A stretch of 64,000 bases of DNA from contig CP158635.1 in assembly GCA_050273025.1 (NCBI GenBank), forward strand, positions 1 through 64,000, given 5' to 3'. Position numbers and translations under genes: made by a program. The notes beneath the pieces were generated by a model. The model searched no databases and was not told where the DNA came from. It saw only the letters and a program-made list of their open reading frames with translations. This DNA comes from Cenococcum geophilum. Lineage: Eukaryota. Every line of letters starts with the position of its first letter. Within the stretch, counting starts at the first letter, position 1. Of this stretch, positions 473 through 60,279 are shown in pieces.

Positions 473-1074
473 ATATTATTTTACTTACTATTACTATTAT
501 TTAAATTACTACTAAATACTACTATCCTATAAATATATACCTATAATGCCCATTTTTCGGAAGCCTTCCGTAAATATCCCCTATTATCCTATAGCCGTTT
601 CCTTATAACTGCTAATATATAATATAATTATTAACCTAACTTATATTATCTTACTACTTAACTTACTTACTAACTCCCTATTATATACTCCTCCCTCTTC
701 TTTCCCTAACTAATACCTATATATATATATATTCTCTTTTCTTTATAACTTCTCCTTTTCTAACCTACTTTTTATAATTAACAGTAATCCTAATAAACTT
801 ATAAAACTTCTACATCTATAGAAAATATAATTATTAAATATTAAAAATATTAAGAAACTTTATCTTAACCGAATATACCTAAGCCTAAATTTAAAACATA
901 TTATAATATAATATATATAACTAATATACATAACATTATAAACGCCCTAGCAAAACCTAATCCGATACTATAACTTACTAATATAATCTAACCCCACCAA
1001 AAATTCTCTTTTTTTCGCCCCTATACTATAAAAACTAACTCTACTTCTACTCCACTTACTTAACACTTAGTAGA

Positions 1075-1620
1075 ATGCCTCCTTATACTTCCCATATTAG
1101 AAAACCTCAATATTTAACCTGTCGTAAGTCTTGGAATACTAGAAGAGACCCTATAAACCTCTATAACCTTGCAAAATCAATACCTGCTAATATATGGAAA
1201 CAATCTCTTACAGTTTAAGAAGAGCCCCTTGCTGCTAGCCTTCTACCTTCTGAAATCCATTATCTAGTTTCTGTAAAGGAGAAGAACGGAAGACCTTTAG
1301 TTTTATTAGCTAATGACCTTATAGATATCTTTAAGACTTGCACACTTAATAAGGAGAATTGTAAGAAATAGTAATATTACGTTGCTGTAGAGGAAGCCTT
1401 TAAACCTTGTAGAAGAATAATAAAGACCTAACTTTAAGCACGAAACTTTTTATACTGTAATTAGTACTAGAGTTAGAGTCAATTTAATGCTAGAATTGAT
1501 CGTTTCTTAATACCGTTATATTTTTTGCCTAAAGCATTAGTGTCCGATTACTTTTTGCCGCCACCCCTTCCCCTACTAATGTCCTATAACACTTAGACTA
1601 TGCGCGAACACCAGAATTAA
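1075..1620 (+). pseudogene. Possible RIP-degraded intron-containing gene, unknown product (copy 2 at about 29272-29817)
   Basis: ATG at 1075, GTAAGT at 1124, GCTAAT branch-like motif, CAG at 1211-1213; locally higher GC. No recognisable domain. Confidence 0.3.
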
Positions 1621-1899
1621 AATTATCTATATAGCTATGGAGCCTTAATCCCATTAATTCTATTACCTAGCTCTTATTAATAATACTAGGACGAAATCCA
1701 CTAGGGGAAGGGGTACTATAAGGGGCCATTTTTCGGAAGCCTTTCTAGAAATCCTCTACTTATAACCTTCTCTTCTGTAATAACCCCTTTATTACACTAT
1801 AGAATCTACTATCCTATAATTCCATCTTATATAGAGTATGCTACCTACCCTATTTCTACCTCTTATCAAAATCTACCACTAGTTGCCTTTAATCTTTGT

Positions 1900-2582
1900 T
1901 AATGCTTCCTAAATACCCTTGCTAATACTAATAGCTTCCTCCGAGTCTTTATTAGCTAGTAATGTCTGTACTCCTTTACTAATTGCTAATAACAGATCTA
2001 ATTGCTGACCTCCTATACCCTTATAGTATTGGTTCTTCTTACTTATCTATTATAATTTAGCACTTATAAATCTGATTTACTGGAACTTAATATAAACCCT
2101 AATATATACTTCTTGTCCTATATGCCATAGGACGTTAAACGGAGTTTTGTACATCCCTATTAAGATCCTATATTACTTAGTACACTACTATTATATTGTA
2201 ACCCTATACTAATAACGGAATTACCCGCTTCTGCAGCTCCTCAACTTCGCTAACCTATGCTTTATCTTTGGCGAGTTCCTCCAGTATCCGGCTCTTAGCT
2301 TTAAGAAGTACTCTATTAACTATAAATCGATTTATAATACTCTTTGTCATCGGTACTAGCGATTCGGGCATCTATATATATTAGTATATATTGGAACCAT
2401 ATAATATAGCTATCTTATACCTAAAAGCATTCATTTTTGTCTTAAAGGTATAAGCAACATAGTTAAGCGCTATTGGTAAGATTAAGGTCGAAGTATTTAT
2501 AGCTTTCTACGCTGACAAATGTGCACTAGTTAGGAATACGATCGACCTAGAACGCTTTAAATGCTATTATTAAGCATGCCAT
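1900..2582 (-). pseudogene. Possible RIP-degraded multi-exon gene, unknown product
   Basis: Minus-strand GTAAG donor-like and CTAAT branch-like motifs with higher-GC exon-like blocks; boundaries approximate. Confidence 0.25.
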
Positions 2583-2963
2583 GCATATATTAGCGTTTGG
2601 CTTTGCCTTTAAGATTGCATCATTACGTCGTTGTTTAAGGATGTTAAGGAATGCCGGGTCGGGCCTTTGAGCGAGTAGGGCTGAGAGCAGTATCTATGGC
2701 ATCCCGAAATTGAAATTAATAAAGGATGCTTAGAATAGAGTTAAATTTAATATTTGGGTTCTATTCCGTGACAAGCTTTTAGAAGTTTAGGATTTTGATT
2801 AAAAAAAAAAAATTTTATATACTTTAGATTATATAAGCGATCCATTACATAATTTAAATCTAATTATTATCCTTTAAAACTACCTTACTGCTAATAATAC
2901 TATATCGCTATATTTTATATTACACTTCTCTAAACTATATCCCCTTTTTTAAAATCCCTAAAT

Positions 2964-4932
2964 AAAAATATATATATTATAGAACTTATCCATAATACCT
3001 CTTTTTCTACTACTTTATACCTATTAATCTATTTTCTACTATTTTCTAAACTATATTGTACTAACCTACTATTAGAACTTACCTATTACATATTTTAAAT
3101 ATAACCACCCTTTTTAGAATACTTTGGTCCAATATATACTATATTTTATTTCCTAGTATACTACCTATAGACATTTTTAGGAAGCCTTTCTAAAAACTCC
3201 CTTTAATCTATGTTATATAATATATTAATCCATTATAATATACTACCATTTATTTCCACTTTATAGAGACATCTTTATTATAATACGATATATCCAATTA
3301 CTCTATAAACCCGATCACCAATTTTGAATTGATATTGGATATCTCTAATACCTAACTTAAGAAGTCCTCTATATACAATTTGAAACCATTAACCCTATAT
3401 CTAAAGAAGTAAACTTAGAGTTACTCTAACTTAAACCTATCTACCGCAGCCTCCAGCTCTGCACTAGCCGCTTTATACTGTTTAGACTTATGCCTAGAAA
3501 GTAATGTCCTAACCCCTTCTATAAGTGCAACTATTAGCGCCGCTTTATTAACTGCTGTAGTATTAGGGTAACTATCGCCAAACTCCTTATAGATATCCTA
3601 ATAAATATTAGTTTACTAAGCCAGTATAGCTTAGGATTAATAACCGACCATAGTAGCATTTATATAAGGTTTGGTCTCAGCTTTATTATTAATAAAGGAC
3701 GTAGCGCTAGAGTGCAACATAATTTGAGAACCGGGTCCATATTTTTTAATAGACATACTATATTAGTTATTATAATGTTAGGGTTATAATATATGGTGGA
3801 CTTACGTTCGCATTAGAGCTAGTGCTAGTTCTTTAGTCTTATAGCGCCACTCATTATTAGCCCATAGTTTAGGGTGTATATTGGCTCTAGCTAAGGGTAG
3901 CTTCCTATTAATAAGTAATCTGCCTATTACGGCCTTTACGGTATTGGCATGCTTTTTAGGGACCTATTTATTATAAGTTAGAGTAGTAAAGTGTATATTA
4001 GTATAAACTTACTTAATAGTAGTTGTTGTCTAGAATAAAGCAATTGATGTATTGTCGATAGGGATAGTTGGGGTCAGTAAAGAAACGGACTTAATCCTTA
4101 TGTATAAAGTTGCACCATATAGGATTAAGGCCATATACAACCTTTTCCAGTGCACGAATTGTGCAGCCTAGACATAGATTAGAATTAGGCTTAGTATAAT
4201 TAATAGTATAGACGCGTACATGTGCAAGTGTTAGATCACAATTCTATAGGTAGTTCATTTTCGCAAGATTTTCAATAGCTGGTAGATAGAAATTTAGAAG
4301 GTAGAATTTGGAAAATGGAAATTAAATTAAGTTGTTAAGGGAATAGAAGTTTAGCTTTAAATCTAGAAAAACAAATATTAATATAGTATGATTATATAAG
4401 CTCTGACTAACTATTTTTTATAATTTTTATAATTTAAATTTTATATCTATTCTTCTAAGTCCATTTTACTTTAGGAAAGAATAAATTATTTTTACTAATA
4501 AAGGATCTAACTAAGTAAGGCATATAGTTAATCATTAGTTTATAAAACAATAGTATAGGTAAGAAAGGTATGGCCTATAACTAAGGTACTAAAAACACTT
4601 CTAGAAAGCCTTTAGATAAATATCTAAGTAGTAGCTATAGTAAAATAAAAGAAAGACGAACTACATATAATATAGGTATAATACTTAATTTTATAGATAG
4701 CTAGGTATAAGTAGTAAAGGATAAGTTAAGGAAGAAAGAGGTAGTTAGAGTAGTAATTAGGTTTGATAATATAAGATAATATTTAGGGAGAGATCCTTTA
4801 ATAGATATTAAATTTAAAATATGCAATAGGTAAGTTCTAATAGTAGGGAGGTAGAATATAGTTAAAATAGAAAATAGATAGAAAGTAGTGGAAATAGGTA
4901 TTATAGGTAAGTTCTACAATATAGATATTTTT
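2964..4932. repeat. Segment bounded by ~125-135 bp imperfect inverted repeats (2964-3100 and 4812-4932)
   Basis: cctactattagaacttacctattacatattttaaat in the left arm pairs with atttaaaatatgcaataggtaagttctaatagtagg in the right arm. Also present in copy 2 (about 31160-32823). Confidence 0.8.
3280..4258 (-). pseudogene. RIP-degraded multi-exon gene of unknown function
   Basis: ATG at 4258; canonical introns 4219-4168 (GTACGC..CTAAT..TAG) and 4012-3964 (GTAAGT..CTAAC..TAG), third donor near 3805; 3' end approximate. The 5' part is deleted in copy 2. Confidence 0.55.
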
Positions 4933-5039
4933 AGAAAGGCTTCCTAAAAAGTATATATAGTAAAGGGAACTTTAGAAAGGTTAACAGTATTACGTAGCTA
5001 ATAAAATTCTAGTAAGGATCTAAATATAGAGTAACTATA

Positions 5040-5830
5040 ATATATTAATATATTTAGTGTCAATAATAGCACGTAGGCTGTTAGCATTAACGTTCCTTAT
5101 TATAATAATGCAGTGACCTTTAGGGATAATAGCTGTGCGGTCTATAATTAGCTGACCTAAAGTGGCGTTATATAGGCTAATATGTAGTAGGTTTCTAAAG
5201 ACCTTACTAGGCGTATAAAGTTAAAGGAAGCTACTTTACTGCGTACCGTCGTCGAGGGTATCCAGGCTTTACTTATACAGCGCTAGTCTAGTAAGGCCTA
5301 TACTACCCGCGAGAAGCTTAAGGACGTAATTGTTAACGCTTAAATGAATAAATATGTATAGCCCTAAACAAGTCCTTCTAAGACAAGAACAGTGGCTGGG
5401 ATGTGGAAGATAGTAATGGTCGAGTGTAATAGTAACAAATGGTCGTGGTCCTAGATACTGTAATGTTTGTAGGCTTTACTCTAGGTAATAGGCCAGATTA
5501 GTACAGCATATGCTTATACATCTCTCTATACCCGGTAGTACAGCTAAATGGTTAACATCTGCTTGGATAGCATTGCCGCGATAACGCTAGGGAGCTTTTT
5601 AGAAAGCCTTCCAGAATATGCCTATAAGCGTCAGTTATAAAGTAACGGATATATACTGTAGATACCGACATAGTATAGAAGTACGTAAGTATAATGGCTA
5701 GTTAACGTAAGCTGCTAATAACAGACAAATGTTTTTTATAGTATATTAAGTGCATAAGACGAAATAGGTATTACTTACACAGTTATTAATTAAGGTAGAA
5801 GTCTTCGTATTGCTAACTACCTCTTCTGCA
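5040..5830 (-). pseudogene. Possible RIP-degraded gene, unknown product
   Basis: GC-richer block with a Cys/His-rich minus frame (LDHYYLPHPSHCSCLRRTC) and a GTAAGT donor near 5777; boundaries approximate. Confidence 0.3.
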
Positions 5831-6493
5831 TAGGGGGGCTAGTAGTAGTGATAACTAAAGTCTAAGTAGGGATATACGCTAGTGAATAAGTGCTAGAGCA
5901 CGGATTAGTTGGTGCTTTATTAGGAGCCTTTCGCAAAAGGATCTTAGCCAACGCTACTAGGAGTAAATAGGTCTGTTAGTTAACCGAGCAATTTTGAGGT
6001 CCTAGAGGTATTAGCACTAGATGCCGGAGTAAGAAAGTAGAAAAGCAAGAAAGTAAGATAGGGAAGTGAAAAAGGAAATATTTAGACGGTGCACCGTCAA
6101 AAGGGAATATAAAAGGATGGCCGTTAGAACGACACCTAAGAGATCCAACCGGAGTAAGAAAGAAATGCAAGAAGCCTTTCTAAAAAGCTGACTAGAGGCT
6201 GTTACGGTTATCTATAAGGAGGCAATAAGACTAAAAATCCGGCGCGCCAATGCTAGCGGTTAGTGTAAGAGCGAAGCCAAGAGTGGGCCAACGGGAAATC
6301 AGCGTCTAAGTGGGAAGATAGTAATACCAACCCTATTAAAGAAAGATGCTTAGTGGAAACCTAATCCAGGCAGGGATTCCAGTGGTAGAGAATATAGGAA
6401 ATTGTAAAGACTTATAAAAATACCAATATGGACTTATCTAGGAAGCCTTCCAATAAAAGTCTAACCGGTAATTGCGGTATTGGGCAAGTAGGA

Positions 6494-9400
6494 CTATACG
6501 TACTTATTATTAGGGGCGGTCATTCTACTAATGTTTAGGTCGACCTTGGCGCGCTTCCGTAGGTTTTTGCTAGAGGATACCGTAGTAGTAGCAGAAGCAG
6601 CGGGCCCGGTGTTTTGCTGCTTGGCCCGTAATGTTTTTAGTTTATTAGCTTTAGTCTTAATAACAGGCGCCTTCTTAGCTCGCACCTTAGGGCCGGCAGC
6701 CTTAATAGGTTTTTTGCCTGCTACGCGCGAGCGTGTCTTCCGTGTAGCTGTTACAGGCGCCGCACCGGTATCAGAACCTATATCTTCGTCGTCTTCAACC
6801 TTACTAGGCGTAGCCTTACGCTTGCGTCTTAATGCTCTTAGCTTACGCTTAGGACGTTCATCCTCATCGTCTTCTATTTCCGATTGGACTTCCGGATTAG
6901 ATTCTACGGTTAGATAGAGGTTTTCCTAGAAGGCTTTACTAAAACCTCTATATTAGACAGCCCGGCGGCCGCGTTAAGTTATAAAGAATTGGATTAGAAC
7001 TTCCTTAGGTTTAAGTAAGGGTTTGTCCAGCAGCTCTTATAGGATGTTAGGATTTAATAAATGCTATAGTTTCCCTTCGTCGTCCAGGTGGAAACCTTTT
7101 AGGGATATTAAATTAAGGACGTTCTCTAGCCCGGGCGTTATATAATCATATACATAGGTTTTAGAAACTTAATCTTTATCAATTATAGCCATTAAACCAG
7201 GAAGGGCGCGAAGGATCTAGGTATTTACTACCTTTTTATTAAACGTCCGCCGTACGTAGTATTTGACAACTATAACCTTACGGGGCTATCCCAATCGATA
7301 CGTGCGCCCGATTGCTTGCTTCTACGCGTTTACGCTAGGCGCCAGGTCAAATAGGTAGACATTATAGCAGCTTTGCTACAAGTTTAGACCGGCACCGTTT
7401 GCTATATAGCTAGCAATTAGGACCTAGCAGACGTCCGGCAAGTTGAAATTTTTGATAAGATTGGATTTCTGGCCCTAAGTGAGGTCGGAGGCCAGCACGC
7501 GGGTATTGATGCTAAAAGACATAAATATCTCGCGGATAATCAGCTACTCCAGCGGGTATAGCAACCAGACAATTGCCTTTTCCTTATATTTAACAACCTA
7601 GTCGGCTATATTAGCGACTAGGGCGCTTAACTAGGATAAGTGTTATAGGACAGCCCCGATAAGCGGTAGAATATTAGACGCCAGTAGGACGTTATACGGC
7701 TATATAGCCGCGGGAAGCTCTGGGGACTTCGCTATTTATTTAAGAATGGTATAGATTATATAAGGGTTCTTTAACCAGCCCTTCTTGCTCTTCTTGGGTG
7801 GATTTATAGCCGAGTAAAAGAGCGCCAGTATAGGCTAAGTAGACATCAGCACGAGCGCGTAGTAGCTGTTAGCGTTTATAACAACGCGACTATCCCCCAT
7901 ACAAGTAGTATTCGTCGCTATAAGCTTTTTAAGGAAGGCTTCCGCGAATGTGTTATAGACAGCTTAAGCCGTCGGCGGATTGTTAAGGTTAAGAACGATG
8001 CTTTTATAGCGAGGGAGCGCCTAGCCGATTATATTTTGGGTGGAACTAATAGAATAGGATGACGTGTACCGCCGACATATAAGATATTGCGACCAAATCT
8101 ACTCAAGCCTACGGCCCTGCTTAATGCTATCCTCTAGGCTAAGGACAAACGCAGCGAATAACGCTAAGGTTAGTCGCAGTATAGCTGCCAAGTGATTGTC
8201 CGCCACCTTAAAGGGGTCGTCGTTCTTCTTAAAGACGGCGCCATTAGAAGTTCTAATTAGGAAGTTAAGCTTTAGTCAAAGCTCGATTAGCGCCGCTAGG
8301 CCGAAGTTATCCCTAATACCCGTAAATAGCGGGGTAGCGCTATAGAGCACGGTAAAAGGACAATCTATAAACTTAATAGCAATATGCGCTAGGGAATCGT
8401 TATTCCTTACGTGATAAGCTTTATTAAGTAGAATGCTATGCTATTGACCTAAAAGATCCCTGGGCTATTTCCTGTCTAGTGTCTTAAACTAGTTGACGGG
8501 CTAATGTACCAACCCCCTCGCCTTAAACGTCGCCCTATAGGTTTTCTTACGCCACTTCTTAAGTGCGCTCGGGCCGTGACGTGATGCGATAGTGCTATAC
8601 GTACTGATAACGACAACGCGTGCGTTAGCGCAATCGCCATTAAACAGTTCGTGCTTCTATATAAGGATTTCGTTTCGACACTAGACATTGGCAGCGGCGG
8701 ATTTTTGGGTCGACGATTTATTATAATACACCTGGATATTAAAGACGGGTAAGAATCGCTGCAGCTCTTCAATCCACTGTTTAATAAGCATAAGCGGGAC
8801 GACCACTAGGAATGGCTTTACTGGACCGATTGCTTTAAGCGTAGCGGCGTTACGTTTTTTAGTGGCGTGGCGGAACGCCTTTTTCTACTCATTAATTATC
8901 TAAGAGCCAGTTAGCAAACAAGAACAATTTTAGGAAGCCTTCTAGAAAGTCTCCTTTAGTATAGGTAGTAGTAGCGACTTATATGCAATATGTAGCCAAC
9001 AAGCTAAAAAGTCTTGCCTAGACCGACAATATCCGCTAGTATTATTCCCCATATCTTCCCGTACTCGCGTGCGTCTATGATAGCATTTATCCCAATAAGC
9101 TGCCACTAGCAGAGTGGTATTAATAATGACTGGCGAAGGAGACAGGGTTTGCGTCGATCTTTAATCTAAAGGTTTCGCATAGACTCTTTAATATTGTCCC
9201 ATTAGTATTTAGCGTTATTTATTAGCTTACTTAGCTCGGCCAGGTTTTTAAGATCCTTTACCGTAGGCTGGCCCATACAAACTATATCGTCGGCCCTATT
9301 AAGGTCTTTATTGTCGTTGTCTTCCTTAGTGGCGTCGTCCTCTACAACCTATGCCCAGCCGTCTACTATACCCAACCCATCCATCCTTGCGGCCGCGGCG

Positions 9401-10683
9401 TTGTCAAGTCCTGACTGCATCCGCTTAGTAATAGCTATTACTTTGTAATACGTCTTCGTAAGCTGGCATATATAGGCATATTACTAGTATCGGTATTTAT
9501 AGTTTACTATTTAGCGAAACTTAGGGGGTAGCTTAAGCTTTATTAACCCGCGGACGTAGTCATCATTATTATCGCCTATATTGAATATTGCCGGACTAAC
9601 GGCTATATCCTTAATTATCAATTACGGGTCTACCATGTCCAGTTCTTCTTTATTATAGTTATCGTTACTGTCCGCCAGCAAGGCATTACTAAAGGTACCG
9701 CTTAGGTTTTTGTTGGAAGGCTTCCTAGAAGTCTTCTTCCCGGCGCGCGATCGCCTCTTACCTAGGGTATTGTTTTCTAAACCCTTAAGCTTGCGCTTAT
9801 TTGCTTTATGCTTGCGTTTTACAACCCTAGAAGGAGCATTATATATATTGGCGCGCTTAAGAATTAACCAGATGCGCTAGTTGGCCATATCCTCGGTTAG
9901 GCCTTTACCAAAGAGAAATCCTCCTTTCCTAAAGTAGAAGGTTTGTCTTATTTTGTATAGAAAATTGGCGTAGTAGTCGATAGAGCTCTATTTGTCCTAT
10001 TCTCTTAACTAGGGATTGGAGAACTTCTAGTTGCCGTGACACTCTCCTATAGACAGTGTATGGACGACCGTTTTTAGGTCAAATATACGGGGCCGAGGTT
10101 TCTGCGTGCGTATAGATACCTTATAAGCTAGCTAGAAGACGGCTTTGTCGATAGCCTTAAATATAGACATAAATGGTTTGTTCTCCATAATATAGCTTAG
10201 TTCTTAGGCGGAGAGATCGCAGAAGTTAGCCAGTTTGGGTAAGCTTCTAGCGATATTAGCGTCCTTACCCTCTTTAGTGTCTAGTGCTTTTACTACGGTT
10301 TTAATATCCTTTGGGTTAAAATCCCAAAGGGAGTCTGCGCTGTCCGCATCCAAATCAGTAGGGTTAGTAGCCGCCGCGTCACCGCCTACAGTGATTGCTC
10401 TAGCAGCATCTATTGTTGAATTGTTGATGCCGCCGAGTGCCTTGTTAAAATCCCGCTGTAGGTCTGACGGCGGCGCGAAAAGAGAGCGTGCTAGTAATAG
10501 TAATGACGTTGCGGTTTTAGGTAGAGGACTATTTGCGGAAGGTTTTTGTAAATGTTCCTCTGGCGGTAACGTGCTTAACGCTATTAAGGGAGCCACCAGG
10601 CTTACGTATTTATTCTTGGTAGTAGGCATAGCCGTATTGGGATTACGGGGCGAGTTAACACCGTCCGCTGGGTTATTATCCAT
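6494..10683 (-). pseudogene. SNF2-family (SF2) ATPase/helicase, RIP-inactivated, copy 1
   Basis: Motifs read by eye: GIILADIVGLGKT (about 9010-9050), KPFLVVVPLMLIKQWIEE, ILLNKAYHVRN (RIP form of DEAH), SATP, GAGLNL, QAIGRTYRLG. Intron 8982-8900. ORFs 10204-10683 and 6494-6685 are the in-frame N- and C-terminal parts; true 3' end uncertain. Confidence 0.9.
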
Positions 10684-11593
10684 CTTAATTAACTAAGTAT
10701 AATTTAACTAACTTTACGGCTTAATCTGTCCACGGTTAGTATTGCGCGCAGCCTTAATAATAAAAAAAAAGGCAAGGGTTTAGTGAGACTTATAAGAGGA
10801 AATCTGGAAAGGCTTCTAAAAAAGACCAAAGTGGCTAGAGCAGATGCGGCACAAAGCTGCCTAGACGCGTATTAGGCTAAAAGTATAGTATTAGCAGTAT
10901 AAACGGTTACTTAAATAATAGAATCTAAAATCTAAAATCTAAAATCCAAAATGCTGGGTTGGGAATAGCTAAATTGGTTAACTTAAAGAATGCGAATTTA
11001 AGTTGAAAGTGGTTAAAGATTTAGAAGTTTAGGTTTGTGGACCTCTTAAGATTCTAATTTAGACTAGCGAGCTTATATAATCGCCAAGCCTTTAACTTTT
11101 TTATTTATTTAAGTTGTAAATTTTTACAAATATACCGTGTAAATTAGGCGTGGGATTGCGATGTTTATATATAAATGTTGCGCTATACGCTCATAAAGTA
11201 GTTTAGCGAAAATCCTGGGGTTACGCGCTAGCCTATTCGCGTAACACGCAACACTTAGGCCTGCGCGCCTTATAGACTTTTAGGAACTTCACTTTATATA
11301 CGCCTTTATTGGATGACGTTATATACTAGGACTATTTCTTAGAAGGCTTTCTAAATATTGCCTTATATATTGCTACCTAGTAAGTGCTTAGTTAAGGTTT
11401 ATAAAAGCATCCGTATTTTCTATAAGTTGCGCTATAGTAAGGAATAGTAGAACGGATTCCTCTTAAGCATTACCACCGCCTAGATCTCCTATTGGTTGCT
11501 GCTTGGCTGGGCTATAATAGCGTACGTGGCCGAAGCTTATAATAGCCGAGCAATTTCCCCACACTCTAACCCCTAAAATCCTTAGACCGCATA

Positions 11594-12073
11594 ATGTTAA
11601 ACACCCCTAGTGCTAAACCCCCTAGTGCTAAACACTAGCCAAAACGTATAATTCTCAGACTTCGAGTAAACGAATTTACCGGTCGGGACTATTCCGAGTA
11701 CATCGATGCTATTAAGGCATATCTCGCCTTTACAGGACGTTTAACCAATAATTTAGAATTCTGGAAACACCACACCTATATTAAGCCGTTTTAAGCCCTA
11801 GATATAAACTAGATCTCATTCCATATTACTATAAATATGGAAAAAGACACGCCTAACCCCCTAACTATCTAGGAGCTACTACATAAGATATATCGCGTCC
11901 GTCGTAATAAGGAGGGAAAGTTATAAGGCCAGTATTCCCTCTTCTATAAATTAGCTAACTTAGTATATAGCCAAGTAAAACGAATTCAGAACGTTATTAA
12001 GGAAATGAATTACCTAACTCGGATACGCAAGTATAGTGATGTTTTATACCCTTAGGCAAAGCAACCATATTAA
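11594..12073 (+). pseudogene. Small (~140 aa) one-intron hypothetical gene, paralogue 1
   Basis: MLNTPSAK..PKRIILRLRVNEFTGRDYSEYIDAIKAYLAF..ELLHKIYRVRRNKEGK [intron with GCTAAC..TAG] QVKRIQN..RIRKYSDVLYP(W)AKQPY*. All internal stops are TAG/TAA. Confidence 0.75.
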
Positions 12074-12689
12074 AGGTTAAATTCGGATTTTAGACCAGTT
12101 TTGGCCTTATTCTAGAACCTATCTAAACCACTTATATTATTAGGGCAAAGTAATAGATTAATATTGTACTACGGTTGGGCCGCTAGCTAGGGGGACTTTT
12201 AGAAAGGCTTCTAAAAAACTGCCTTAATTTGCTATCTACTCTCTATATTACTGTTTACCTTTACCATCTATAATACCATTTCAGACCTTTATTAAGGTAG
12301 CAATCCCTCAGCTTAGCTAACGCCTTAATGGCTAGCCTATGTTTTTTTAAAATAAGTAGTACTTCCTTACCCCTAATGCCATATGGTCCAGTGTCGTATA
12401 ATGCTACTAAGGTAGCGCCTTATCGGGCAGCAGTGATACAAACTGTTTATATAGTGCGGCCTTAGTCCTTATAAGCACCCTACTAAGGCCATACTATCCT
12501 TCTTAATGCCGCCTAAATCTCACTCTAATTTGTTCTCTTTAAAATGTATAAGCAACGTTGCTATTATTACTAGGATTATGGTTATCTCTATCCCTATTAT
12601 TACATTAGATGTTTAGTGGCTCTCACACGCCCTAACTAAGAAGTTTGTGTGCCTGTAAGTGGATTATATATTAACCTTCTTATTATATG

Positions 12690-13640: not shown

Positions 13641-14887
13641 CTCCAATATTAATTAAAAAAATAGTAGTAGTATTATAGGTCCTAAAGTATAAGAAGGCAA
13701 TAATTAATATACCTCCTATATTATAATACCTTAGGAAATAGGCTTAAAAGGTAAAATAATAGTATATAATATTTACAAAAAAAAAACTATTTAAAAAGAT
13801 TTATTACTTAGTCTATAAGTATAAAAGTAAATATACTATATTTTATATTAATTTTCTATTTTAATTTATTAGCTTATTTTATTAAGTTCTAATAACCTTA
13901 ACTAGAGTTATAAATAACTTTTATAATAGCACTAAATATATAAAATATTAGGTATTTTATATAAACTTTAATCTAAGTTTAAAAGCTTTAACTTAGAGCC
14001 TTATATATAAAGTTTAATTAATATATTAATATATATATATAAGGTTTTTTAAAAGAAACCCCTTAAAACCCCTCTTTATAGAGCTTTTACTTTATTTATT
14101 ATTAAGTAATATTATTTTATTAAAAAGATCTATTATAGTAACTAAAGTACCCTATTTAAGTTAGGCTTAATTTAAAAGTAATATAAAATCTAATTAATAT
14201 TATTATATATATAAGGCTTTCTAAAAAAAGACTTTTTAAACCCCTTTATAAAGCTTTTAAAAGTAATAATAAAGCTAAAGTGCCTTAATTACTACTAGAT
14301 AGTATTATTTTATTAAAATATACTTTTATTATATTATACTATAAGGGCTATTTTATAATAAAGGGTAAGCTTTAGGTAAAGGCTTATATAAAGCTTTAAT
14401 AGAGCTTTATATAGAGCTTTTATAGGGCTTTATTAAAGCTTAATATATAGCATTTTAAAAGTATAGACTACTTATACTTTATAATATTTTAATATTTATT
14501 ATATAGATTCTGCTATAACTTATTATATATAAGTTTTTTTTTAACTAATTAAAAGCTAACTTAGTAGGGGTTTAAATTCTAGTATCTAAATATATAGATT
14601 ATTTATACCTTAAATTAATAAAGGGGTTATATAACCTATGCTAATAGTTAGTTTATTTAAACTTATATAGATATCCTATTATTAGTTTATAATAAGTATC
14701 TATTAGTTCTATAGACAAACTAATCTTATTACCACCTATATCTCCTATTAATTGCTATTTAGCTTAGCTATAATAATATATATAAGATAGCTAACGCTTT
14801 TAACGGCTAAGTAATTTCCCTATACTTCTAACTACTTAAAATCCTAAATAACTAGAGGCCAGTACCTCCTAATCTATATATTATATA

Positions 14888-15299
14888 ATATTAAATCTCC
14901 TTAGTGCTAAACGCTAGCCAAAACGTATAATTCTTAAACTTTAAGTAAATGATTTTACTGGTTGGGACCCTTCTAAGCACACTAACGCTATTAAGGCATA
15001 TATCGCTTTTATAGGACGTTTAACCAATAGTTTAGAATTTAGGAAACACTACGCCTATATTAAGCCGTTTTAAGCCATAGAGCTAAATTAGATCTTATTT
15101 TATATCACTATAGATATAAAGAAAGACTTACCTAATCCCCTAGCTATCTAGGAGCTACCATATAATATATATCGCGTCCGTTATAATAAGGAGGTATAGC
15201 CAAGTAAAACGAACTGAGAATGTTAAGGAAAAGAATTACCTAACTCGGATACGTAAGTATAGTAATATTCTATACCTTTAGGCAAAGCAACCATATTAA
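14888..15299 (+). pseudogene. Small hypothetical gene, paralogue 2 (most of the intron imprecisely deleted, frameshifted)
   Basis: Aligns with 11594-12073; aaggagg|tatagccaag at about 15195 lacks the donor region. Confidence 0.72.
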
Positions 15300-16902
15300 A
15301 GGTTTAATTTAGATTTTAGACTTTAGAATTGATCTAAACCGCTTGCATTACTGGGGCAAAGTAATATTAATATTATACTACGATTGGGCCGTCGGCTAGG
15401 GGAACTTTTAGGAAGGCTTCTAAAAAACTGCCTTAACTATTACTACCTTAACCATCTAAACTAACGTAGTGGCAAATATTGTTATTTCAAATACCGTTTA
15501 AAAAAAACTTTGTTAAGGTAGTGAATCCTTCGGCTAATTTATACAGACCTATTATGCAGGACCTACCCAGCGTTGCTTAATTATTTTGGTAAACTAAATT
15601 AACTTAAGTAATAATCTGAGAACCTCTAATTGATCGGCGTTCGCTTTTACTGCCCGCTTGGTCCTACGCCCTCGTAGACTTTTAGGAACTTCACTTTATA
15701 TATACCCTTCTATCGGTCGTAGGCATTACGTCGTATACGAAGACTATTTCTTAGAAGGGTCTATTAATGAAGATCCAAAGTTAAGGAAAAGGAAAGGAGA
15801 GGACAAGTAGTACCGCTTAAAGATTTATACAATCTTCGAGTCACGTAACCGCAACCTACGGCAATCTGCCATAATCTACTACAATTTGCCAATACCGTAA
15901 CACCTAGAGGTTGCGCTATAGTAGAAATTAGTAGAACGAGTTTCTCTTAAGTACTAAATATCGCCTTTATCACCTCTATTATGTACATTTTTTTTAAGCG
16001 AGTAGTACTCCCCTACCCCCAATGCTATGTGGCCCAGTGTCGTACAATACTACTAAGGTAGCGCCTTATCGGGTAGTAACGATGCCTAACTCTATAACCC
16101 CTTTATATAGTGCGGCGTCAGTCCTTATAAACACCTTACTATTCTTTTCAATACCCCCTAAATCTCACCCTAATTTATTTTCTTTAAAATGTACAAGCAA
16201 CGTTGCCATTATTATTAAGGGTGTGACCATCTAAATGCCTATAATTACGTTAGATATTCAGTGGCTCTTACACGCCCTAACCGAACCCTTTGTATGCCTA
16301 TAAGTGGATTTATTTAAGATCTTCTACAAGCCCTTAATATACAAGACCAAGACTTAGCTAGTTTATATCCACCTTATTCCGGCCTAACTCCTCTAAGCTC
16401 TTAGGGTTCGCAGTAATCATATCTAAATACGTACTTAGTAATAGGTATAACTAAGGATTGGGTGTAACGTATATAACTTTAGCGCTAAGGACTTAATAGA
16501 TAGCTGGCCCGGTTCGGGTAAGGGTTACAATAGTGGCAGTATTATGGGTTTATGAGGCCCGGAGTATACGATTGTAATAATTAATACACCTCCTACCTTA
16601 TAACACCTTAGGAGATGGGCTTAAAGGGTAAAGTAGGATGCGATAATTGCTGGGGAACTATCTAAGAAGAATCGTTACTTGCACTTATACAGACACCCTA
16701 TTATTAATTTATAATAGGTGTCTATTAGTCCTATAAGTAAACTAATCCTACCACTACCTGAGTCTCCTATTAGTTGCTATTCGGCTGGGCCATTATAGAG
16801 TGTACGTGCGTAAGGTGGCCGAAGCTTCTAATAGCCAAGCAATTTCCCTACGCTTAAAATCCCAAACAACTAGAGGCCAACCCCCAATCCATACACCACA
16901 CA

Positions 16903-17367
16903 ATGTTAAACCCCCCTAGTGCTAAACACTAGCCAAAATGTGTAATTCTCAGACTTTAAGTAAATGAATTTACTGGTTGGGACCCTTCCGAGTACACCGA
17001 CGCCATTAAGGCATATCTCGCCTTTACAGGACGTTTAACCGATAATTTAGAATTTAGGAAATACTACTCCTATATTAAGCCGTTTTAAGCCCCAAAGGTA
17101 AACCAAACCTCATTTTATATTACTATGGATATGGAGACAGACTTAGCCAACTCCCTAAATATCTAGGAGCTACCATATAAGATATATCGCGTCCGTCGTA
17201 ATAAGGAGGGGAAGTTATAAGGCTAGTACTCCCTCTTTTATAAATTAGCTAACTTAGTATATAGCTAAGTAAAGCGAATTCAGAACGTTATTAAGGAAAA
17301 TAATTACTTAACTCGGATACGCAAGTACACTAATGTTTTATTACCTTGGGCAAAGTAGTGATATTAA
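16903..17367 (+). pseudogene. Small hypothetical gene, paralogue 3
   Basis: Aligns with paralogue 1; ATG intact and the TGG codon in P-W-A-K retained. Confidence 0.75.
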
Positions 17368-18149
17368 AGGTTCGATTCGAATTCTGGACTGGTTTTGGCC
17401 TTATTTTTATAACCAATCTAAACCGCTTATATTACTGGGGCAAAGTAATATATTAATATTGTACTACGGTTGGGCCGTTAGCTAGGGGAACTTTTAGGAA
17501 GGCTTCTAAAAAACTACCTTAACTATCTAAAGTGACGTAGTAGCGAATATTGTTGTTGTTTGCGGTCCGTAATACTATTTGCTAGCCTGTTCTTATAACA
17601 CTTAACGCTTAAGCCCCCACGTCTTATAGACTTTTGGGGAACTTCACTTTATAGGTCGTATACCAGGACCATTTCTTGGAAGGCTTTTCAAATATTGCTT
17701 TGTATATTGCCACCTAGCGAGTGCTCGGCATGGTCTATATAATGCGTATATAAGTAGGTTTTAAGGTAAGTTAGCAGCACCCCCGATCTGTAAGATATGT
17801 AAATAAATACGCCGGAATTAGGGAGATGGTTAAAAAGATCCGTAAGTAGGGATAAAAGACAATGTAGTATGGCTGGGGGGGGAGAGAAGAGAGGTTATAT
17901 ATAAATGGATTTATATCGCGTTCTTAAAGCGTCTTACGATGCCTTCTATATTGCAATTTTATTCTTTTCTATTTTTTTTTCCTTTTCGTTCCCTATTTTA
18001 GGGGGCTAGAGTATATAAGCTAGAGAGAAGAGAGAGGCTAAGAGTTAGTGCGTTAGGTTATGGCCGAAATTAGACATTCGGCGCTGCTAAATTCCGGCAT
18101 ATTAATACTTTTGGCAGAAAGGCGATATTCCTCTAACCGCCCGGCTAGA

Positions 18150-19550
18150 TGCCCGGTAGGATGAATTTAAGGGTAAAAATATTTTTAGTATATTCCTAGG
18201 CCAACCTTATATAAATGATTTGTAAATTCTAGCATTCCAAATCCTCCGAAGTAAGAATAGTAGTTCTCCAATAACTTAAATTTTGCTAGAATTATACAGT
18301 ATGTGTTAAGACGTTATCGCTTAATTTCGCTGCGCAGCTATCTACAAACAAAGGGGAGAAGATCCGCTTTAATTTAAGCATTATATAAGATGCACGAATG
18401 TCCCACTAGGCGGTCCTCTTTGTCCTCCGCCACGAGACCGCGAATATATCCTTTAAGAAGACGACGACAGCATTAACTATCCCGAATGCCGAGGGGAGAC
18501 GCCACCTGAAACTCCCTAGGAGTATATAACTTCTAGCTTAGGGCAACGGTAAGAATTATAGAGACACGGATAAACACGTCCTGTGTTAACATTAGATATC
18601 AACGCACTTTATAGTGTTTACGTTAATAGAGTTAAGAGCTGTTCCAATCTCCCTTACTGCTAGCTACTTATCTGTTTATGCCCGAGAACTTTTAAGCTTA
18701 TCTTCGTTATTATAATGTATCAAGTTTTAGTTTCGCCACTAATTCTTACTCCTGTCTCCCTCCCTAATAGAAAGTATAGCAGTACGCTTTTGCTTTCTCA
18801 ATATAACGTTCTCGAGGGATAAACAGCCTGTTGTGATATATTAGCCCATTATAGATGAATGTAATGACCGGTTAATATACCATTGGTTTTCTTGCTAAGA
18901 CACTAAGTATACTGCATATAGAAGAGAAAGCACTTCGTCTCTGCTTAGGCGGCTTTGAACGTTAAGGTCTAAAACGAACCACTTCTATATAGGTTTATCC
19001 GTGTCAAAATACGGAGGTATATATATGTAGTTGTAAGCTAAAAGCTGCGGTTTATAACAGTATTACCGGTTAAGGAATTGACGATAGAATATGTCTGCAA
19101 GAGTATTATAACGGTTTTAAGGGTATTTGGGCAGGTCCGTTATACAAATCTAAAGTATTACCCAAGCTAGATTAGTGCTAAAGTCATCCATTTATATCTT
19201 ATTAAAGAGTAGTTGCGTAAGAGGAGACATCTCAATACAGTATATACGACAGAATAGTGTAACTTAAACGGGAAAGTAACTAAAATTTAAGGAAGTTGAT
19301 TTTGTTGCATTCTATCGCGGCAGTTGGCCTATGCGAGGATATTAGTAGGGTAAAACTGCGCCGACCAAGGTCTAAAAACCTAGTTATCCGCGCCGACGCT
19401 ATAAAGGTGATTTTAATAGCAGTGCACACATAAAGGGCCTTTTCTCCTATACTCGCCATATGGCGGTATAGAATCGCCGGCATATTGTATTAATCCTGAC
19501 TAATTCTAGACACCTTATTTAACCAATTCAGCCTCTTTACGCAATACTTT
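18150..19550 (-). pseudogene. Possible degraded gene relic, unknown product
   Basis: Single-copy-per-unit, GC-richer block containing ORF 19280-19483; no domain recognised; strand and limits tentative. Confidence 0.25.
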
Positions 19551-21176
19551 TCTCGTTACCGACCTCCTTACTTTAGCTACGCGCGCTACGCTGCTACTAA
19601 TATAAGGACTTTTAGGAAGGCTTCTAAAAAACTACCTTAATTTGCTATCTACTATCTAGGTAACAATCCCTCGGCTTAGCTAGCGCCTTAGTAACTAGCC
19701 TATATATTTCTTTATATCTTTCCTTCTCCTTAGCTTAGTATTTTCGTAATACAGCATTCGTTTAAGCTTCGATTTAGAAGCATTTATTCGAGCTATAACA
19801 CTTAGTAAAGGTTTATAAAAGTATTTATATTTCTCGCCCTAGAGGTTACGCTATCCCTTCCGCTGGTATATCCCGTCCTACTATTATCAATAAGAGCTGG
19901 CTAATAGAATCAATACGATCGAGACCCCGCGACTATACGTGTACTTTTAATTCTATTGTTCGCGTATAGTCCGCCTCTCATAAGACCAGCGGAAGGGATA
20001 GTAGAGATTAGTGAAACGAATTTCTCTTCAGTACTAAATATCGCCTTTATCACCCCCGTTATGTGCATTTTTTTATATAAGTAGTACTCCCCCACCCCTA
20101 ATGCCATGTGGCCTAGTATCGTACAATGCTACTAAGGTAGCGCCTCGTCGGGTAGCAGTGATGCCTAACTCTGCAAACCTTTTATATAGTGCGGAGTCAG
20201 TCCTTATAAATACCCTACTAAGGCCACACTATCCTTCTTAACGCCGCCTAGATCTCACTCTAATTTGTTCTCTTTAAAATGTGCGAGTAATATTGCCATC
20301 ATTACCAGGATTATGGCCATCTCTATCCCTATTATTACGTCAGATATTCGGTAGCTCTTACACGCCCTAACTAAGAAATTTATATGCCTATAAGTGGATC
20401 TATATAAGATCTTCCACGAGCCCTTAATATATAAGACCAAGACTTAGCTGGTTTATGTCTACCTTATTATAGCCTATCTCCTCTAAGCTCTAAGCATTTG
20501 CAGTAATTATGTCTGGATACGTACTTAGCAATAGGTATAACTAAGGATTAGGTGCAACGTATAAAACTTTAGCGCTAAGGACTTAATAAATAGGTAGCCC
20601 GGTTCGGGTTCGGGTTAAAATAATAGTAGTGTTATAGGTCTACAAGGCCTAGGGTATAAGGAGGCAATAATTAATATACTTCCTACCTTATAATACCTTA
20701 AGAGATAGGCTTAAAGGGCGAAGTAAGATGCGATATTTGCTAAAAAACCGTCTAAGAAGAATTGTTACTCTATAAGTGTAATAATAGTCGTGCCATATTC
20801 TATATTGTTCCTCTATTATAATCCGTTAGCTTACTTCGCTAAGTCCTAACGACCTTAACTAGAGTCGCGGACTACTTCTATAATAGTACTAATAAATAGG
20901 TCACGTGACCCGTGCTAACGGTTAGTTTATTTACACTTATATAGATACCCTATTATTAATTCGTGATAAGTATCTATTAGTCCCGTAGGTAAACTAATCC
21001 TACCACCACCTAGGTCTCCTATTAGTTGCTGTTCCGCTAGGCCGTAATAACATACACAAGGCGGCTGCGTGTATATAGTAGCCGACGCTTCTAGTAGCCG
21101 AGCAATTTCCCTACACTTTTAACCACCTAAAAATCCTAAACAACTAAAGGCCAACACCCCTTATCTATATATTACA

Positions 21177-26378: not shown

Positions 26379-26540
26379 TTTTAGGAAGGCTTCCGGAAAT
26401 ACTCCCTGGTAAGTTTTATATTGCTATTTATAGTGTTCTAGTTTCGGTTCTTAGGGGGAAGGTATAAAAGCGCGTAGCCGAAGCTTGGCCTTAATGCGAT
26501 TCCTTGACGCGATTTCCTACTTTAATAATATCCCACCGCT

Positions 26541-56447: not shown

Positions 56448-56770
56448 GGAATTAATAATAGTATATAATAATATCTAGGTAAGGGCTTAAGGGTATTATT
56501 CTAGGGCATGATAGCTGTAAGGACGTTAAATTGGGCGTTAAGCAATCAATTAAAGGATAGGGTGGAGACGAGGGTATAAGTCTTCTGATAATCTGCCGAC
56601 TACGTAATCTGGTTTAAAATATTATAATAGGGCAAGTTGCTTTACGCCTTAGATATACTTTACGCCTTAAATAACGCGTATTAGCTCTTAAAGTTTAACT
56701 ATATCTAATTATTTCGTATATATACCTATTTAGTGTACTTACTATAGATTATAATTTAAGTAATAGGCAT
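56448..56770 (-). pseudogene. 5' fragment of a diverged TLH paralogue, cut at the unit boundary
   Basis: ATG at 56770, first exon and GTAAGTACAC donor at 56742 match TLH 26378-26341; VKL(Q)ELIRVI(Q) resembles TLH VEL(Q)ELARLV(Q). Confidence 0.6.
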
Positions 56771-56844
56771 TTTTAGGAAGGCTTTGGAAAATACTCCCTA
56801 CGTAAGCTAGGAAGTATGCATTGCTATTTATATACCCTATCGCT

Positions 56845-59526
56845 AATTGCATCTAGCCCTATATATAACTCTTCTAGTTACTAAATTTCCCTCTTCTCTC
56901 TATAGGACGTGGTACGCCTTTGCCTTTTAGCCGCCTTGCCGGCCTAGGCTTCGCTATTATTAACTAACTTGGATACTGGCCGCTTTCTTGCCGCCAAGTA
57001 GACCTAAAACTTAAGAAAGTTATACTACTTGCGACTAATCACTTAATACTCCGCCCTCCTTGCCTTAACCGCGCCTAGAGCCTCCTCTAGCCCTTATGCG
57101 TAAATTATGCTAGCAATCTATAATATATAGCTTACCTAGTTATTTACGCTAGTATTATCTATCCCGTAGTCGCGCTTAAAGCTACTACACTTTAGGTAAG
57201 CGCGGGATATTGTAATCGCGGCATACCGGTAAAAGGTAATATTTATATACGTTTTTAAATGCTTCTCCGCCTCGCGTTTAAGTACTATAGTTAGCTAGGG
57301 ACTATCCTAGCCCTCCTCGCCTTTAGCCTAAAGAAACGGCGATGGGCAATCCTTCTTGTCGAATATAAGCAACTCTAGCTTCTGCTAGAACGGGAGAATC
57401 AACTATAGGTGGTAAACGACTAGCTCGCCTACCTCCCTTAGTAGATAGTAGTAGATAATCTTAGTGTTGCCGACAATGCTATAACCCTTATAGTAAGCCG
57501 TTACCATATTAACCAGCCCATCCTTAATAAAAATGCTCCGGTGGTGCCTATATATGGTATTAAAATGCCATAAGCTTAGGATTTTTATACCGCGAGTAGG
57601 TTGGCCCAAAGTAAGATAGATAAGCAGGAGGAGTTATTTAAGAAAGTTATTAATCTAGGATGCGTACTCCTTTATCGCCGCTAGCTTTTATATTACTTTC
57701 GCGTCCTTCTTCCGCACCTCTAGGAACTCTACCTACAGCCAATCCGTCTTAAGTATGCGATTAAGCATCTACCGTTTACTGTTAGGTAAACTGGCTTTAT
57801 TCCAAGTATCCTTAAGAAAACTCCACCCCTTAGCATTTTAAGTTGGATTATCCTTTAAGTCGCGTAGCTAAAAAGTCGGTATTATATCCTTCCGCTTTTT
57901 ATTATTATATAAAAAAAAAAGTCGTTCTAGTTCTGACTGCGCTAGTTCTACCTACGTGTAAACAAAGTTCTTAAAGTCGGTTATAGTTATTTTGAGCGTC
58001 TTATATATTAGCTTCTCGTAGTTATCCAACTAATAGATATAGCCTAGGCTTGTGGTTGTGTTCCGGATTTTTTTACCATATGCTTATAGTCGTAGCACCT
58101 AGTTAAAGGGCGATCTACTCCCGTGGATTATAAATCACTCTCTTATTTTATCTAAAATATCCGCTAGATGGTTAATATCCCCTTCTTTTGCTATAATTAC
58201 GGCCCGTTATATAACAAGCATCTACGCTATTTTAATAAACGCTAATAGGTAACTTGTGTACAAATACGCGCCCCTAAAAATCTTCTTCTCTAGGTTTATA
58301 CCTAATACGGCTAAAAACCCAACTACGGCGCTCTCAAAAAGATCGCCTTTTAAAGTATAGTCTAGCAGCAAGATGTAAAATAAGAGGTAGGTACAGTCTA
58401 GCTGGGACTCGATGTCCCTAAGGAGTATATTATATCGGTTTCGATCCTTCTTTACCTATTACTTCTCCTCCGCTTTTACGGCTAACAGCTCCTCTCTATG
58501 CCCTATTATTTAGTCTAGATAAGTAAGCTATGCGGCGGTTAACTAGTGTAATAACACGATACGCTAGTCTGGCTGGATGGTGCGAAATACAAAGCATATT
58601 AGTTACTAGAAAACTAGCTTATACCCTCTAAATGTTGCCTTCTTAAGCTTAATTATTAGCGGACGGTTCTAAGCTCTTCTACCCTAGATAAAGCTGTTAA
58701 TTTATGCCTGGTTGAATACATTTACTTTATCGGCGTATATAGAGTGGTGCAATTCCTTAATAATCTGCTTAAGGCTTTGGGAAAACTCCGTAAGTAAAGG
58801 CTCCGTTATAGGGTTAGCTAGAGAGGCTAAGGGAGTAACTTCCTCAAAGCTATAACCCTAGAGGTATTAAGGCTAACGAGTTATCTTAAGCTACGGAGAC
58901 GTCTCCGTCTAGGCGGCGTTGTCCGAAATAATATCCTCTGATATATCAATCTCCTATAGACCATCCTTTAGCAACTTATTAACCTAACTCTTTATAAAGT
59001 CCGCCTCGGGTAAAGCTTACACCATCTCCCGGCGTTGCCGCGTGCCTTCCTCTTCCTCCAGCTAAGCTGGCGAAATAATAGTGAAGAAGTGACTCCCTAC
59101 GCCGCTAATAAAAAGACGTTGGCATATTACCTTCTTCTAACGTGGCGGTGCTGGCGCGAGAGACTTGGGCGGGCGGCCTTTACGGCCTTTGCTCGAAATA
59201 TGCTCCTCTTAGCAATAGTTAGCTATCTTCTTTTCCGCTCGCATAATATACGGACACTATAGGCAAGCAAGGCCATTATAGATTGGAAGAAAAGGTATAG
59301 CATATAGGGCTACGGTAGGGGTTAATATGCGGGTAGTTTGGGGATCGGATAGCGGCTTCTGTGTAAGCTCTGCGATTACAAGCTGCACTTTCTCCTTATA
59401 ACTAAGGTTTGGGTAATTAGAGTGGCGAGTCATTAGGTGGGCTTTATAGTGGTTCGGCTTAACAGCAAACCCGCAGGGATCGTATACCCATACTTAGTAA
59501 TGCTCTAGATATTAAAAGAGATCCAT
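56845..59526 (-). pseudogene. TLH-related gene with DUF3505-like and YR-like regions but no RecQ core; RIP-inactivated
   Basis: ATG at 59526; DPCGFAVKPNHYKAHLMTRH; NGLACL(Q)CPY; VICQRLF; LGQPTRGIKILSL..SIFIKDGLV..YYKG..KIIYYYLLREVGELVVYHL; FYRYAAITISRAYL. No helicase motif I follows. Confidence 0.85.
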
Positions 59527-59809
59527 TTATATAAACGGTAAAGCTATAAATGGCGAAAAGGTCTTAAAAATAAGTAGATAAGGGCTAAGGAAATTAAAAA
59601 GGGCGATATAGGATTAATAGAGGTTTACGTCCATAATAAGTAAATACGTAAAATACGCGAAATTAATAGTGGTTTCGCTAATGTGGTAAAAGGCTTATGG
59701 ATTTAATTTCCTCGAGTTAGTGGCTTAAAAGGATTATCCAGAAAATAAAATTGCAGGGCCTAAGGGGCACGTTTATTTTACATTCCTATTAGAGCTTTAG
59801 ATTTATCCC

Positions 59810-59993
59810 TATTACGGAGTAGGTATAAGTGGATACAATATACTAAACGGAGTAGTAATTAGGAAGACTTCGTATATATTTAAATAAAGAAGAAGACTTT
59901 ATGTACTAGGTGTACATAAATAGGGGTTATAAGGGGACGGGACAAAACGTAAGTATGGGTGAGGAACGTTAAAAACGGGTAAGTCCCGTGACA
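59810..59993 (-). mobile_element. Short LTR (184 bp) with adjacent polypurine tract
   Basis: Minus strand begins TGTCACGG and ends CCGTAATA (RIP form of CCGTGACA); preceded on the minus strand by GGAG14ATT (59994-60013). Confidence 0.7.
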
Positions 59994-60279
59994 AATCCCC
60001 CCCCCCCCCTCCTTTTTACTTGGTTGTTTTTCGGAAGGCTTCTAAAATATCCTCTTACGCGTATAGAGCGCGTCGCCTTTAGTATTGGTCTTAGTGTAAA
60101 TCCGGTCGATTTAATTATTAAAGTAGTTAGTTAATAAAGTCGTTAACACAGATCGATTTGGATCGGTAGGTCGGTAGTAGAGAGGTACTGATGTACCGAT
60201 ACCCCATTAAAACAAGCGAGCGAATAAGAGGGGGAGAAAAGGTATGGAGGGCAGGATGGAATTAACGATAGGGTATAGG

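Follow-up and report, generated by a model that had tools for sequence, protein, structure and literature searches.

A dispersed 21-bp palindrome, a candidate protein-binding element of a chromosome-end TLH/SNF2 repeat in Cenococcum geophilum

The first 64,000 nt of Cenococcum geophilum contig CP158635.1 (assembly GCA_050273025.1, forward strand; hereafter, the window) contain two copies of a repeat unit with genes for an SNF2-family helicase and for a telomere-linked RecQ helicase (TLH), across which a 21-bp palindrome, TTTNNGGAAGSCTTCCNNAAA, recurs at about 25 loci per 28-kb unit when the transitions of repeat-induced point mutation (RIP) are allowed. The motif is real and occurs far beyond chance. 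Judged from its sequence, it would be bound by a homodimeric protein and serve as a cis-element of the multi-copy TLH/SNF2 repeat, a reading that we hold tentatively and with slightly more doubt than confidence; a dimeric-protein site nevertheless fits the anatomy of the sites better than any rival tested.

An earlier note on this DNA had listed the palindrome at 27 places, and a motif-like 21-mer does begin within 3 bases of each listed start (27/27). When G>A and C>T changes are not scored as mismatches (RIP tolerance), 25/27 listed sites have at most 2 mismatches across the 17 specified positions of the 21-mer, compared to 16/27 under strict scoring; the remaining two, at 4599 and 6434, have 3 RIP-tolerant mismatches each, and the core of 6434 is perfect over its 11 bases. 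GGAAGSCTTCC, the exact core (S is G or C), occurs 8 times in the window versus 0.02 expected from 100 shuffles, and the core at ≤2 mismatches occurs 46 times versus 9.8 ± 3.2 in shuffles, whose maximum was 18. The note had also proposed comparing motif density with dinucleotide-shuffled controls, and the difference is large: counting the full 21-mer at ≤2 strict mismatches, with 40 such shuffles per region, there are 14 matches in unit 1 (342-28546) and 13 in unit 2, against 0.03 in the shuffles of each, and 2 outside the units (56448-64000), against 0. These counts correspond to densities of ~0.5 per kb in the units versus 2 per 7.5 kb outside them. Further, a RIP-tolerant search of unit 1 at ≤2 mismatches yields 34 matches at 26 distinct loci, after merging duplicates shifted by ±1, where first-order Markov simulations predict 1.1 ± 0.9 loci. 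Outside the internal module array, the commonest words with at least 4 G/C bases all come from the core, and core words rank highest in over-representation among words that contain G or C.

The anatomy of the motif was read from 23 stacked sites, and complementarity was counted over 18 independent contexts, with positions numbered from the central base. Seven positions never vary among the 23 sites, namely -3 and -2 (A), -1 (G), +2 and +3 (T), -9 (T) and +9 (A). The GG/CC pairs at ±4 and ±5 show only G>A and C>T variation. Position ±6 is free and is complementary in 5/18 sites. The central base (G at 15 sites, C at the other 8) is the sole asymmetry of the core. Column bias extends to about ±19 (CTAGGGnCAT ... 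AyTnCCTTA), making the whole a loose, weakly conserved palindrome of ~41 bp, and per-site complementarity past ±11 is modest (5-11/18 at ±14 to 18). A homodimer would place a TTTT-n-GGAAG half-site under each of its monomers, with the one central G/C pair where the halves meet. The resemblance to Zn2Cys6 factor sites that the note saw in a CGG-N7-CCG form does not hold: C at -6 is found in 4/23 sites and G at +6 in 5/23, both triplets come together at site 554 only, and inverted CGG triplets are therefore no property of the motif. Moreover, the common TTTTAGG form is not derivable from TTTTCGG through RIP transitions. Two other identifications were rejected, namely a telomere-like reading of the arms (TTAGG), whose overlap falls on -6, the least conserved core position, and a heat-shock element (consensus nGAAnnTTCn), as GAA-GSC-TTC has three bases between GAA and TTC, not two.

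The sites are concentrated at the ends of the mapped genes (Table 1, which also gives second labels carried by some sites). A Pfam scan of the six frames of unit 1, with X at stops, returned only the families SNF2-rel_dom, Helicase_C, OrsD and DEAD, which make up two minus-strand genes, SNF2 and TLH. Their un-RIPed homologues are P0001 (770 aa, 76% identity, gapless over 8806-6497) and P0003 (1371 aa, 71% identity, gapless over 25992-21880), and the longest contig of each of these two clusters is 13,371 bp. At the TLH gene, the 21-mer at 26379 touches the ATG, which opens a frame that agrees with P0005, a homologue, at the N-terminus (MPIAQVVIYSKYTK in P0005, MPLAKVIIHSKYTK here), and the site at 21762 lies shortly past the stop codon. 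One site follows each aligned end of a small module gene, about 130 nt beyond it. Across the 18 independent contexts, CAT or TAT (read as ATG on the strand encoding both large genes) abuts the left edge of the 21-mer in 7, and ATG stands at the mirror position, the right edge, in 1.

Longer SNF2 homologues show that the SNF2 gene reaches ~10200, and the first in-frame ATG, at 10683, is its putative start; the stretch 10204-10696 is open on both strands (162 aa each), and its minus-strand frame is the first SNF2 exon. Reading frames and splice signals point to a putative 83-nt intron at 8982-8900, which would separate helicase motif I (GLGKT) from the exon that follows; its signals are ATAAGT as 5′ site (GTAAGT after G>A), GCTAAC resembling a branch site and TTAG at the close. 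The interior of SNF2 carries sites in both its exons and its putative intron, as the earlier note had described: four lie in coding sequence, in two reading frames, where 10532 and 9710 read ..KPS.. and 7928 and 6923 read F-x-E-A-F, and one (8928) lies in the putative intron. In the TLH coding body, where the same account saw no copy, the 21-mer count (22000-26300) is 0.

If a dimeric protein binds the motif, as we infer, its binding could set or insulate the boundaries of transcription units, or co-regulate the genes of the unit while its copies were active, and the internal SNF2 sites would have arisen in place, under selection for the motif. The candidate functions of the motif are gene-boundary control and recombination. 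Several observations weigh against the protein-binding reading. The 4.5-kb TLH coding sequence contains no site while the SNF2 transcription unit contains five, so that a simple gene-boundary role does not explain the placement. Of the seven abutting ATGs, the only confirmed start codon is that of TLH; the SNF2 ATG lies ~120 nt from its site, and a site touching an ATG is too near for a usual upstream activating element. One RNA run supplied 143 mostly partial reads, in which no pile-ups of read beginnings or ends were found. Finally, the core has no CpA/TpG and is thus partly shielded from RIP, with 0.19 differences per G/C position between unit copies in the sites versus 0.25 in their flanks; such shielding aids the survival of the motif, but cannot create it.

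Most sites stand in non-homologous surroundings, a statement of the earlier note that pairwise comparison of the flanks of 23 sites bears out. Similarity above background is confined to three groups, {12202, 15411, 17497, 21767, 19615}, {11341, 17678} and {26384, 56776}, with 19615 belonging to its group on the right side only, and the other 14/23 sites are singletons that share no flank with any other site. The same comparison informs the second half of the note's proposal of a binding or recombination site. On a recombination reading, a site-specific recombinase, or a fragile or hot spot, would let repeat copies exchange segments at the palindrome, shuffling and multiplying modules at chromosome ends. 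The right flank of 19615 is common with 12202 and 21767 (local scores of 37 and 72, versus a 99th percentile of 16), and its left flank is unrelated to theirs, with homology beginning at about -14 from the centre. In addition, a ~125-bp fragment centred on motif 56776 is the sole remnant of a TLH 5′ region beside a truncated TLH paralogue, DNA contigs of other unit copies join 17520 to 21796, each just past a motif site, and module number differs between unit copies. However, 19615 alone switches flanks cleanly; 15411 and 17497 have right flanks that align weakly with the others, and the 17520/21796 joints sit in paralogous modules where ordinary homologous exchange explains them. The inverted arms of a recombination site are present, but the asymmetry of the spacer is the single centre base, neither unit copy ends at a motif, and the Pfam scan of unit 1 found no recombinase, integrase or transposase, though heavy RIP may hide such a gene. 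Overall, the dimeric-protein part of the note's proposal is favoured, the signs of recombination are suggestive but few, and we consider recombination or breakage an unlikely explanation of the motif.

To the same degree unlikely is an ordinary genome-wide site of this fungus, such as one for a general regulatory factor or a promoter or terminator element in common use, which would not mark the repeat and would have come to notice here through close reading of the window. Its case rests on the two sites outside the two units and on the presence of sites at the ends of three unrelated genes. Both outside sites (56771 and 60028), however, adjoin TLH-related sequence. Every site within the window is TLH-linked, the sites are dispersed rather than tandem, and none is found in 60100-64000; four coding copies in one gene, at ~1 per kb, would also be unusual for a general promoter or terminator element. 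The note had seen no copies in a Gypsy element or a HET gene. The HET gene is unconfirmed, as a Pfam scan of 60050-64000 found no HET domain reaching E 0.001. At ~60490-60630 on the plus strand, that region carries an Integrase_H2C2 domain (integrase zinc-binding domain, E 1.6e-5) of a RIP-ed long terminal repeat retrotransposon. A search of a viral contig collection gave 18 matching stretches (three on one contig and one on each of 15 others), with no link to the unit.

A somewhat more doubtful proposal is that the palindrome works as a nucleic-acid structure, either an RNA hairpin in processing, termination or translation control at the ATG, or a DNA cruciform. Such a hairpin would work whichever strand is transcribed, all mapped SNF2 and TLH sites lie within or at the edge of likely transcripts, and RNA folding of some copies is favourable (-18.4 kcal/mol at 10537, -13.3 kcal/mol at 26384). 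In contrast, when 45-mers were folded as single strands and compared to random 45-mers from the same unit, the DNA energies of the sites (-0.8 to -6.6 kcal/mol) were not unusual against those of the controls (-2.4 ± 1.9 kcal/mol). The variable positions do not covary (±6 is paired in 5/18 contexts), and the stem keeps its own sequence from one unrelated context to the next. What is conserved is therefore the base sequence and not the pairing, which favours a dimeric protein-binding cis-element over a selected hairpin. A hairpin-rule terminator does not fit, as the energies are within the control range, ±6 is seldom paired, and 5′ ends and gene interiors hold sites as well; the T-run 5′ and A-run 3′ of the stem are unlike a terminator layout.

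More doubtful again is a wider scheme in which the repeat is a selfish chromosome-end element built of cassettes, whose own gene-start and gene-end signal is the palindrome. A dimeric protein encoded by the element would read this signal, punctuating transcription and promoting segment exchange and copying between chromosome ends, and a drive-like process would carry the motif through the element, tolerated SNF2 reading frames included, as happens with the uptake sequences of some bacteria.

Returning to the protein-binding reading and to how its sites arose, the homologue P0001 is gapless (770/770 residues) across two SNF2 coding sites and reads FAEAFLKK at 7928 and GFGEAFQEN at 6923. These were placed in an alignment of 42 SNF2 proteins, comprising P0001, P0002 and 40 of the 43 best representatives P0037-P0079 (three under 500 aa were left out). 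No row lacks residues beneath FAEAFLKK, where the nearest relative (43% identity) has YSEAPLKK. At 6923, few aligned relatives reach the site, and those that do read GLGAAFHE, GVGARFTA and similar; a metagenome scan with P0001 found one RIP-ed contig of 1263 bp, from a 59% identical relative (L001), that keeps the palindrome at this site. Thus at least these two coding copies arose in place and are not insertions relative to homologues. A search for target-site duplications found no consistent boundary, the best combination of boundary and length being seen at 3/17 sites versus a random mean of 0.34. For the copies open to testing, a mobile-element origin is unsupported. The least probable of all the explanations is a miniature mobile palindromic element (like a miniature inverted-repeat transposable element or an introner) inserted many times into the repeat, which would suit the many copies in unrelated contexts, the copy filling the middle of the putative 83-nt intron and the limit of conservation at ~41 bp, but which is opposed by the missing duplications, the two ungapped coding copies, the presence of only 1 of ~25 sites in the putative intron, the lack of splice signals common to the sites and a length far under that of known autonomous or non-autonomous elements.

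The window opens with 30 CCCTAA telomere repeats (5-188). A 14-bp minisatellite, CCGTCCTAGTTACC, in ~9-10 copies, lies directly inside the telomere (336-472) and again at the junction of units 1 and 2 (28552-28672); no telomere repeats were found between the units, so that each unit starts with a telomere-adjacent minisatellite array. The two copies differ by 2594 transitions and 10 transversions, which is the signature of RIP, and copy 2 is the more heavily mutated. Their sole large indel is a stretch of ~307 bp (4105-4411) that is present in copy 1 and missing in copy 2. After duplication of the unit, the motif sites decayed like their own flanks, and both copies are thus relics. Across contigs of three public DNA runs, summed depth over the unit is ~800-1500 versus ~30 for single contigs, which identifies the unit as a multi-copy family, with about 30 genomic copies by this measure. 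At 14384-14445, a 23-bp tandem repeat, TTATATAAAGCTTTAATAGAGCT, has a summed DNA-contig depth of ~14000 in X1; it is probably a widespread satellite-like sequence, as many contigs and RNA reads attach there only in part. Similarly, summed contig depth jumps about five-fold at 19093-20426 (6443 in X1), where the few RNA reads match partly, which suggests that the module array has taken in a segment of a much more abundant repeat.

The best named match of the module gene product, at 72% identity, is P0187, a partial hypothetical protein assigned to Cenococcum geophilum, and neither has a Pfam family; a 16-residue gap in P0187 suggests a 48-nt intron. A third TLH-like gene, beyond the units, is truncated near residue 880-900 of full-length homologues and is flanked by the sites at 56771 and 60028. 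Left of 6.4 kb, no further genes could be defined after copy 1 was de-RIPed against copy 2, the stops being too dense.

Table 1. Repeat units, genes and palindrome sites in the window. Flanking trinucleotides are given for the forward strand.
Feature	Position	Strand	Remarks
Repeat unit copy 1 (28-kb)	342-28546		context
Repeat unit copy 2	28542-56447		90-93% identity to copy 1
SNF2-family helicase gene, RIP-broken	6494-10683	-	context
TLH gene, RIP-broken (OrsD, DEAD, Helicase_C)	21877-26378	-	no motif inside
Small module gene, four copies per unit	11618-12067, 14903-15293, 16912-17355, 21186-21635	+	no Pfam family
Divergent TLH paralogue	57007-59526	-	~30% protein identity to unit TLH
Site, 0 mismatches	554-574		CAT adjoins left edge
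Site	1730-1750		CAT adjoins left edge
Site	3175-3195		CAT adjoins left edge
Weak site	4599-4619		3 RIP-tolerant mismatches
Site	4929-4949		TAT adjoins left edge
Site	5597-5617		ATG adjoins right edge
Weak site	5917-5937		
Site, degenerate left arm	6165-6185		
Site, perfect core	6436-6456		~37 nt past SNF2 stop codon
Degenerate site, SNF2 coding sequence	6923-6943		GFGEAFQEN in un-RIPed P0001; kept in metagenome relative L001
Site, SNF2 coding sequence	7928-7948		reads FAEAFLKK, identical peptide in P0001; no insertion
Site, putative SNF2 intron (8982-8900, minus strand)	8928-8948		
Site, perfect core, SNF2 basic linker	9710-9730		reads SRKPSNK
Site, first SNF2 exon	10532-10552		reads LQKPSAN; ~130 nt past putative ATG; also labelled 10537
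Site upstream of putative SNF2 ATG (10683)	10802-10822		~120 nt from the ATG
Site	11336-11356		paralogue of 17673; also labelled 11341
Site past P0187-like module gene copy A1	12197-12217		130 nt past the gene; also labelled 12202
Site past module gene copy A2	15406-15426		also labelled 15411
Site past module gene copy A3	17492-17512		also labelled 17497
Site	17673-17693		paralogue of 11336; CAT adjoins left edge; also labelled 17678
Site, only right flank common with 12197 and 21762	19610-19630		homology from ~-14; also labelled 19615
Site between convergent 3′ ends	21762-21782		~95 nt past TLH stop, ~130 nt past module gene A4; also labelled 21767
Site, 0 mismatches	26379-26399		adjoins TLH start codon (ATG 26378-26376, minus strand); also labelled 26384
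Weak site upstream of TLH	27407-27427		
RIP-worn site	28111-28131		CAT adjoins left edge
Unit 2 counterparts (part 1), 21 bp each	28751, 29927, 31371, 32490, 32820, 33488, 33808, 34056, 34327, 34814, 35819, 36819, 37601		
Unit 2 counterparts (part 2), 21 bp each	38423, 38693, 39227, 40088, 43294, 45380, 45561, 47498, 49650, 54267, 55295, 56000		
Span of unit 2 sites	28751-56020		
Site outside units	56771-56791		centre of ~125-bp fragment homologous to TLH 5′ region; also labelled 56776
Site outside units	60028-60048		~500 bp upstream of divergent TLH paralogue

In the parts of the literature that were covered, on TLH genes, RIP, palindromes and fungal palindromic motifs, no description of the motif was found, and papers listed for the core sequence are, by title and opening of the abstract, unrelated animal, medical and microbial work. 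The covered passages of the Cenococcum geophilum telomere-to-telomere assembly paper (PMC12910237) have no occurrence of 'palindrom', 'MITE' or 'inverted repeat', and those of the Leptosphaeria genome paper (PMC3105345) and of a Fusarium TLH preprint do not mention the motif. To the extent of these passages, the motif is so far an undescribed cis-element of the TLH/SNF2 subtelomeric repeat.

As a discrete and countable 21-bp site, it offers a concrete handle on how telomere-linked helicase repeats, which are found at the chromosome ends of many fungi, are regulated and copied. It could serve as bait for a binding protein, as a marker for the repeat in RIP-blurred genomes and as a means of asking whether such repeats carry their own control signals; were the motif found everywhere in the genome, it would be only one of the fungus's common regulatory sites, and its interest would be modest.

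Several known systems share some of these features. By analogy only, the DNA uptake sequences of Neisseria and Haemophilus also occur at ~1 per kb, in tolerated coding frames and as inverted pairs at gene ends, but they are bacterial and driven by uptake bias, and fungi are not known to have such a process. The introner-like elements of Dothideomycetes, the class of the closest named homologues, are likewise short structured intron sequences, but their copies share a whole intron, including its splice signals, whereas here ~41 bp are shared. Integron attC, loxP and FRT sites are imperfect palindromes that border gene cassettes; the present motif differs in its one-base spacer asymmetry, its sites inside a gene, its eukaryotic host and the lack of a recombinase found with it. 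In budding yeast, the subtelomeric X and Y′ elements carry Tbf1 and Reb1 sites (subtelomeric anti-silencing region, or STAR, insulators), and are similar in placing repeated protein-binding sites, thought to bound chromatin or transcription domains, within helicase-bearing subtelomeric repeats. The Tbf1/Reb1 sites are, however, telomere-like (TTAGGG) or Reb1 motifs that are non-palindromic and do not occur in coding sequence at ~1 per kb.

The nearest precedent is the helicase-associated repeat HAR-D of the Magnaporthe oryzae TLH subtelomeres, which contains a 23-bp imperfect palindrome (Rehmeyer et al. 2006, PMC1635262). The printed HAR-D unit, compared by eye, does not resemble GGAAGSCTTCC, and it lies in a compound tandem array ending 181 bp from the TLH start, whereas the present sites, all TLH-linked within the window, are single and dispersed over 28 kb, including inside SNF2. 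In that source, as here, a short imperfect palindrome goes with the telomere-linked helicase regions of a fungus's chromosome ends; the HAR-D palindrome belongs to a conserved core that persists when the repeat is truncated, upstream of the TLH gene, with no function assigned to it (PMC1635262).

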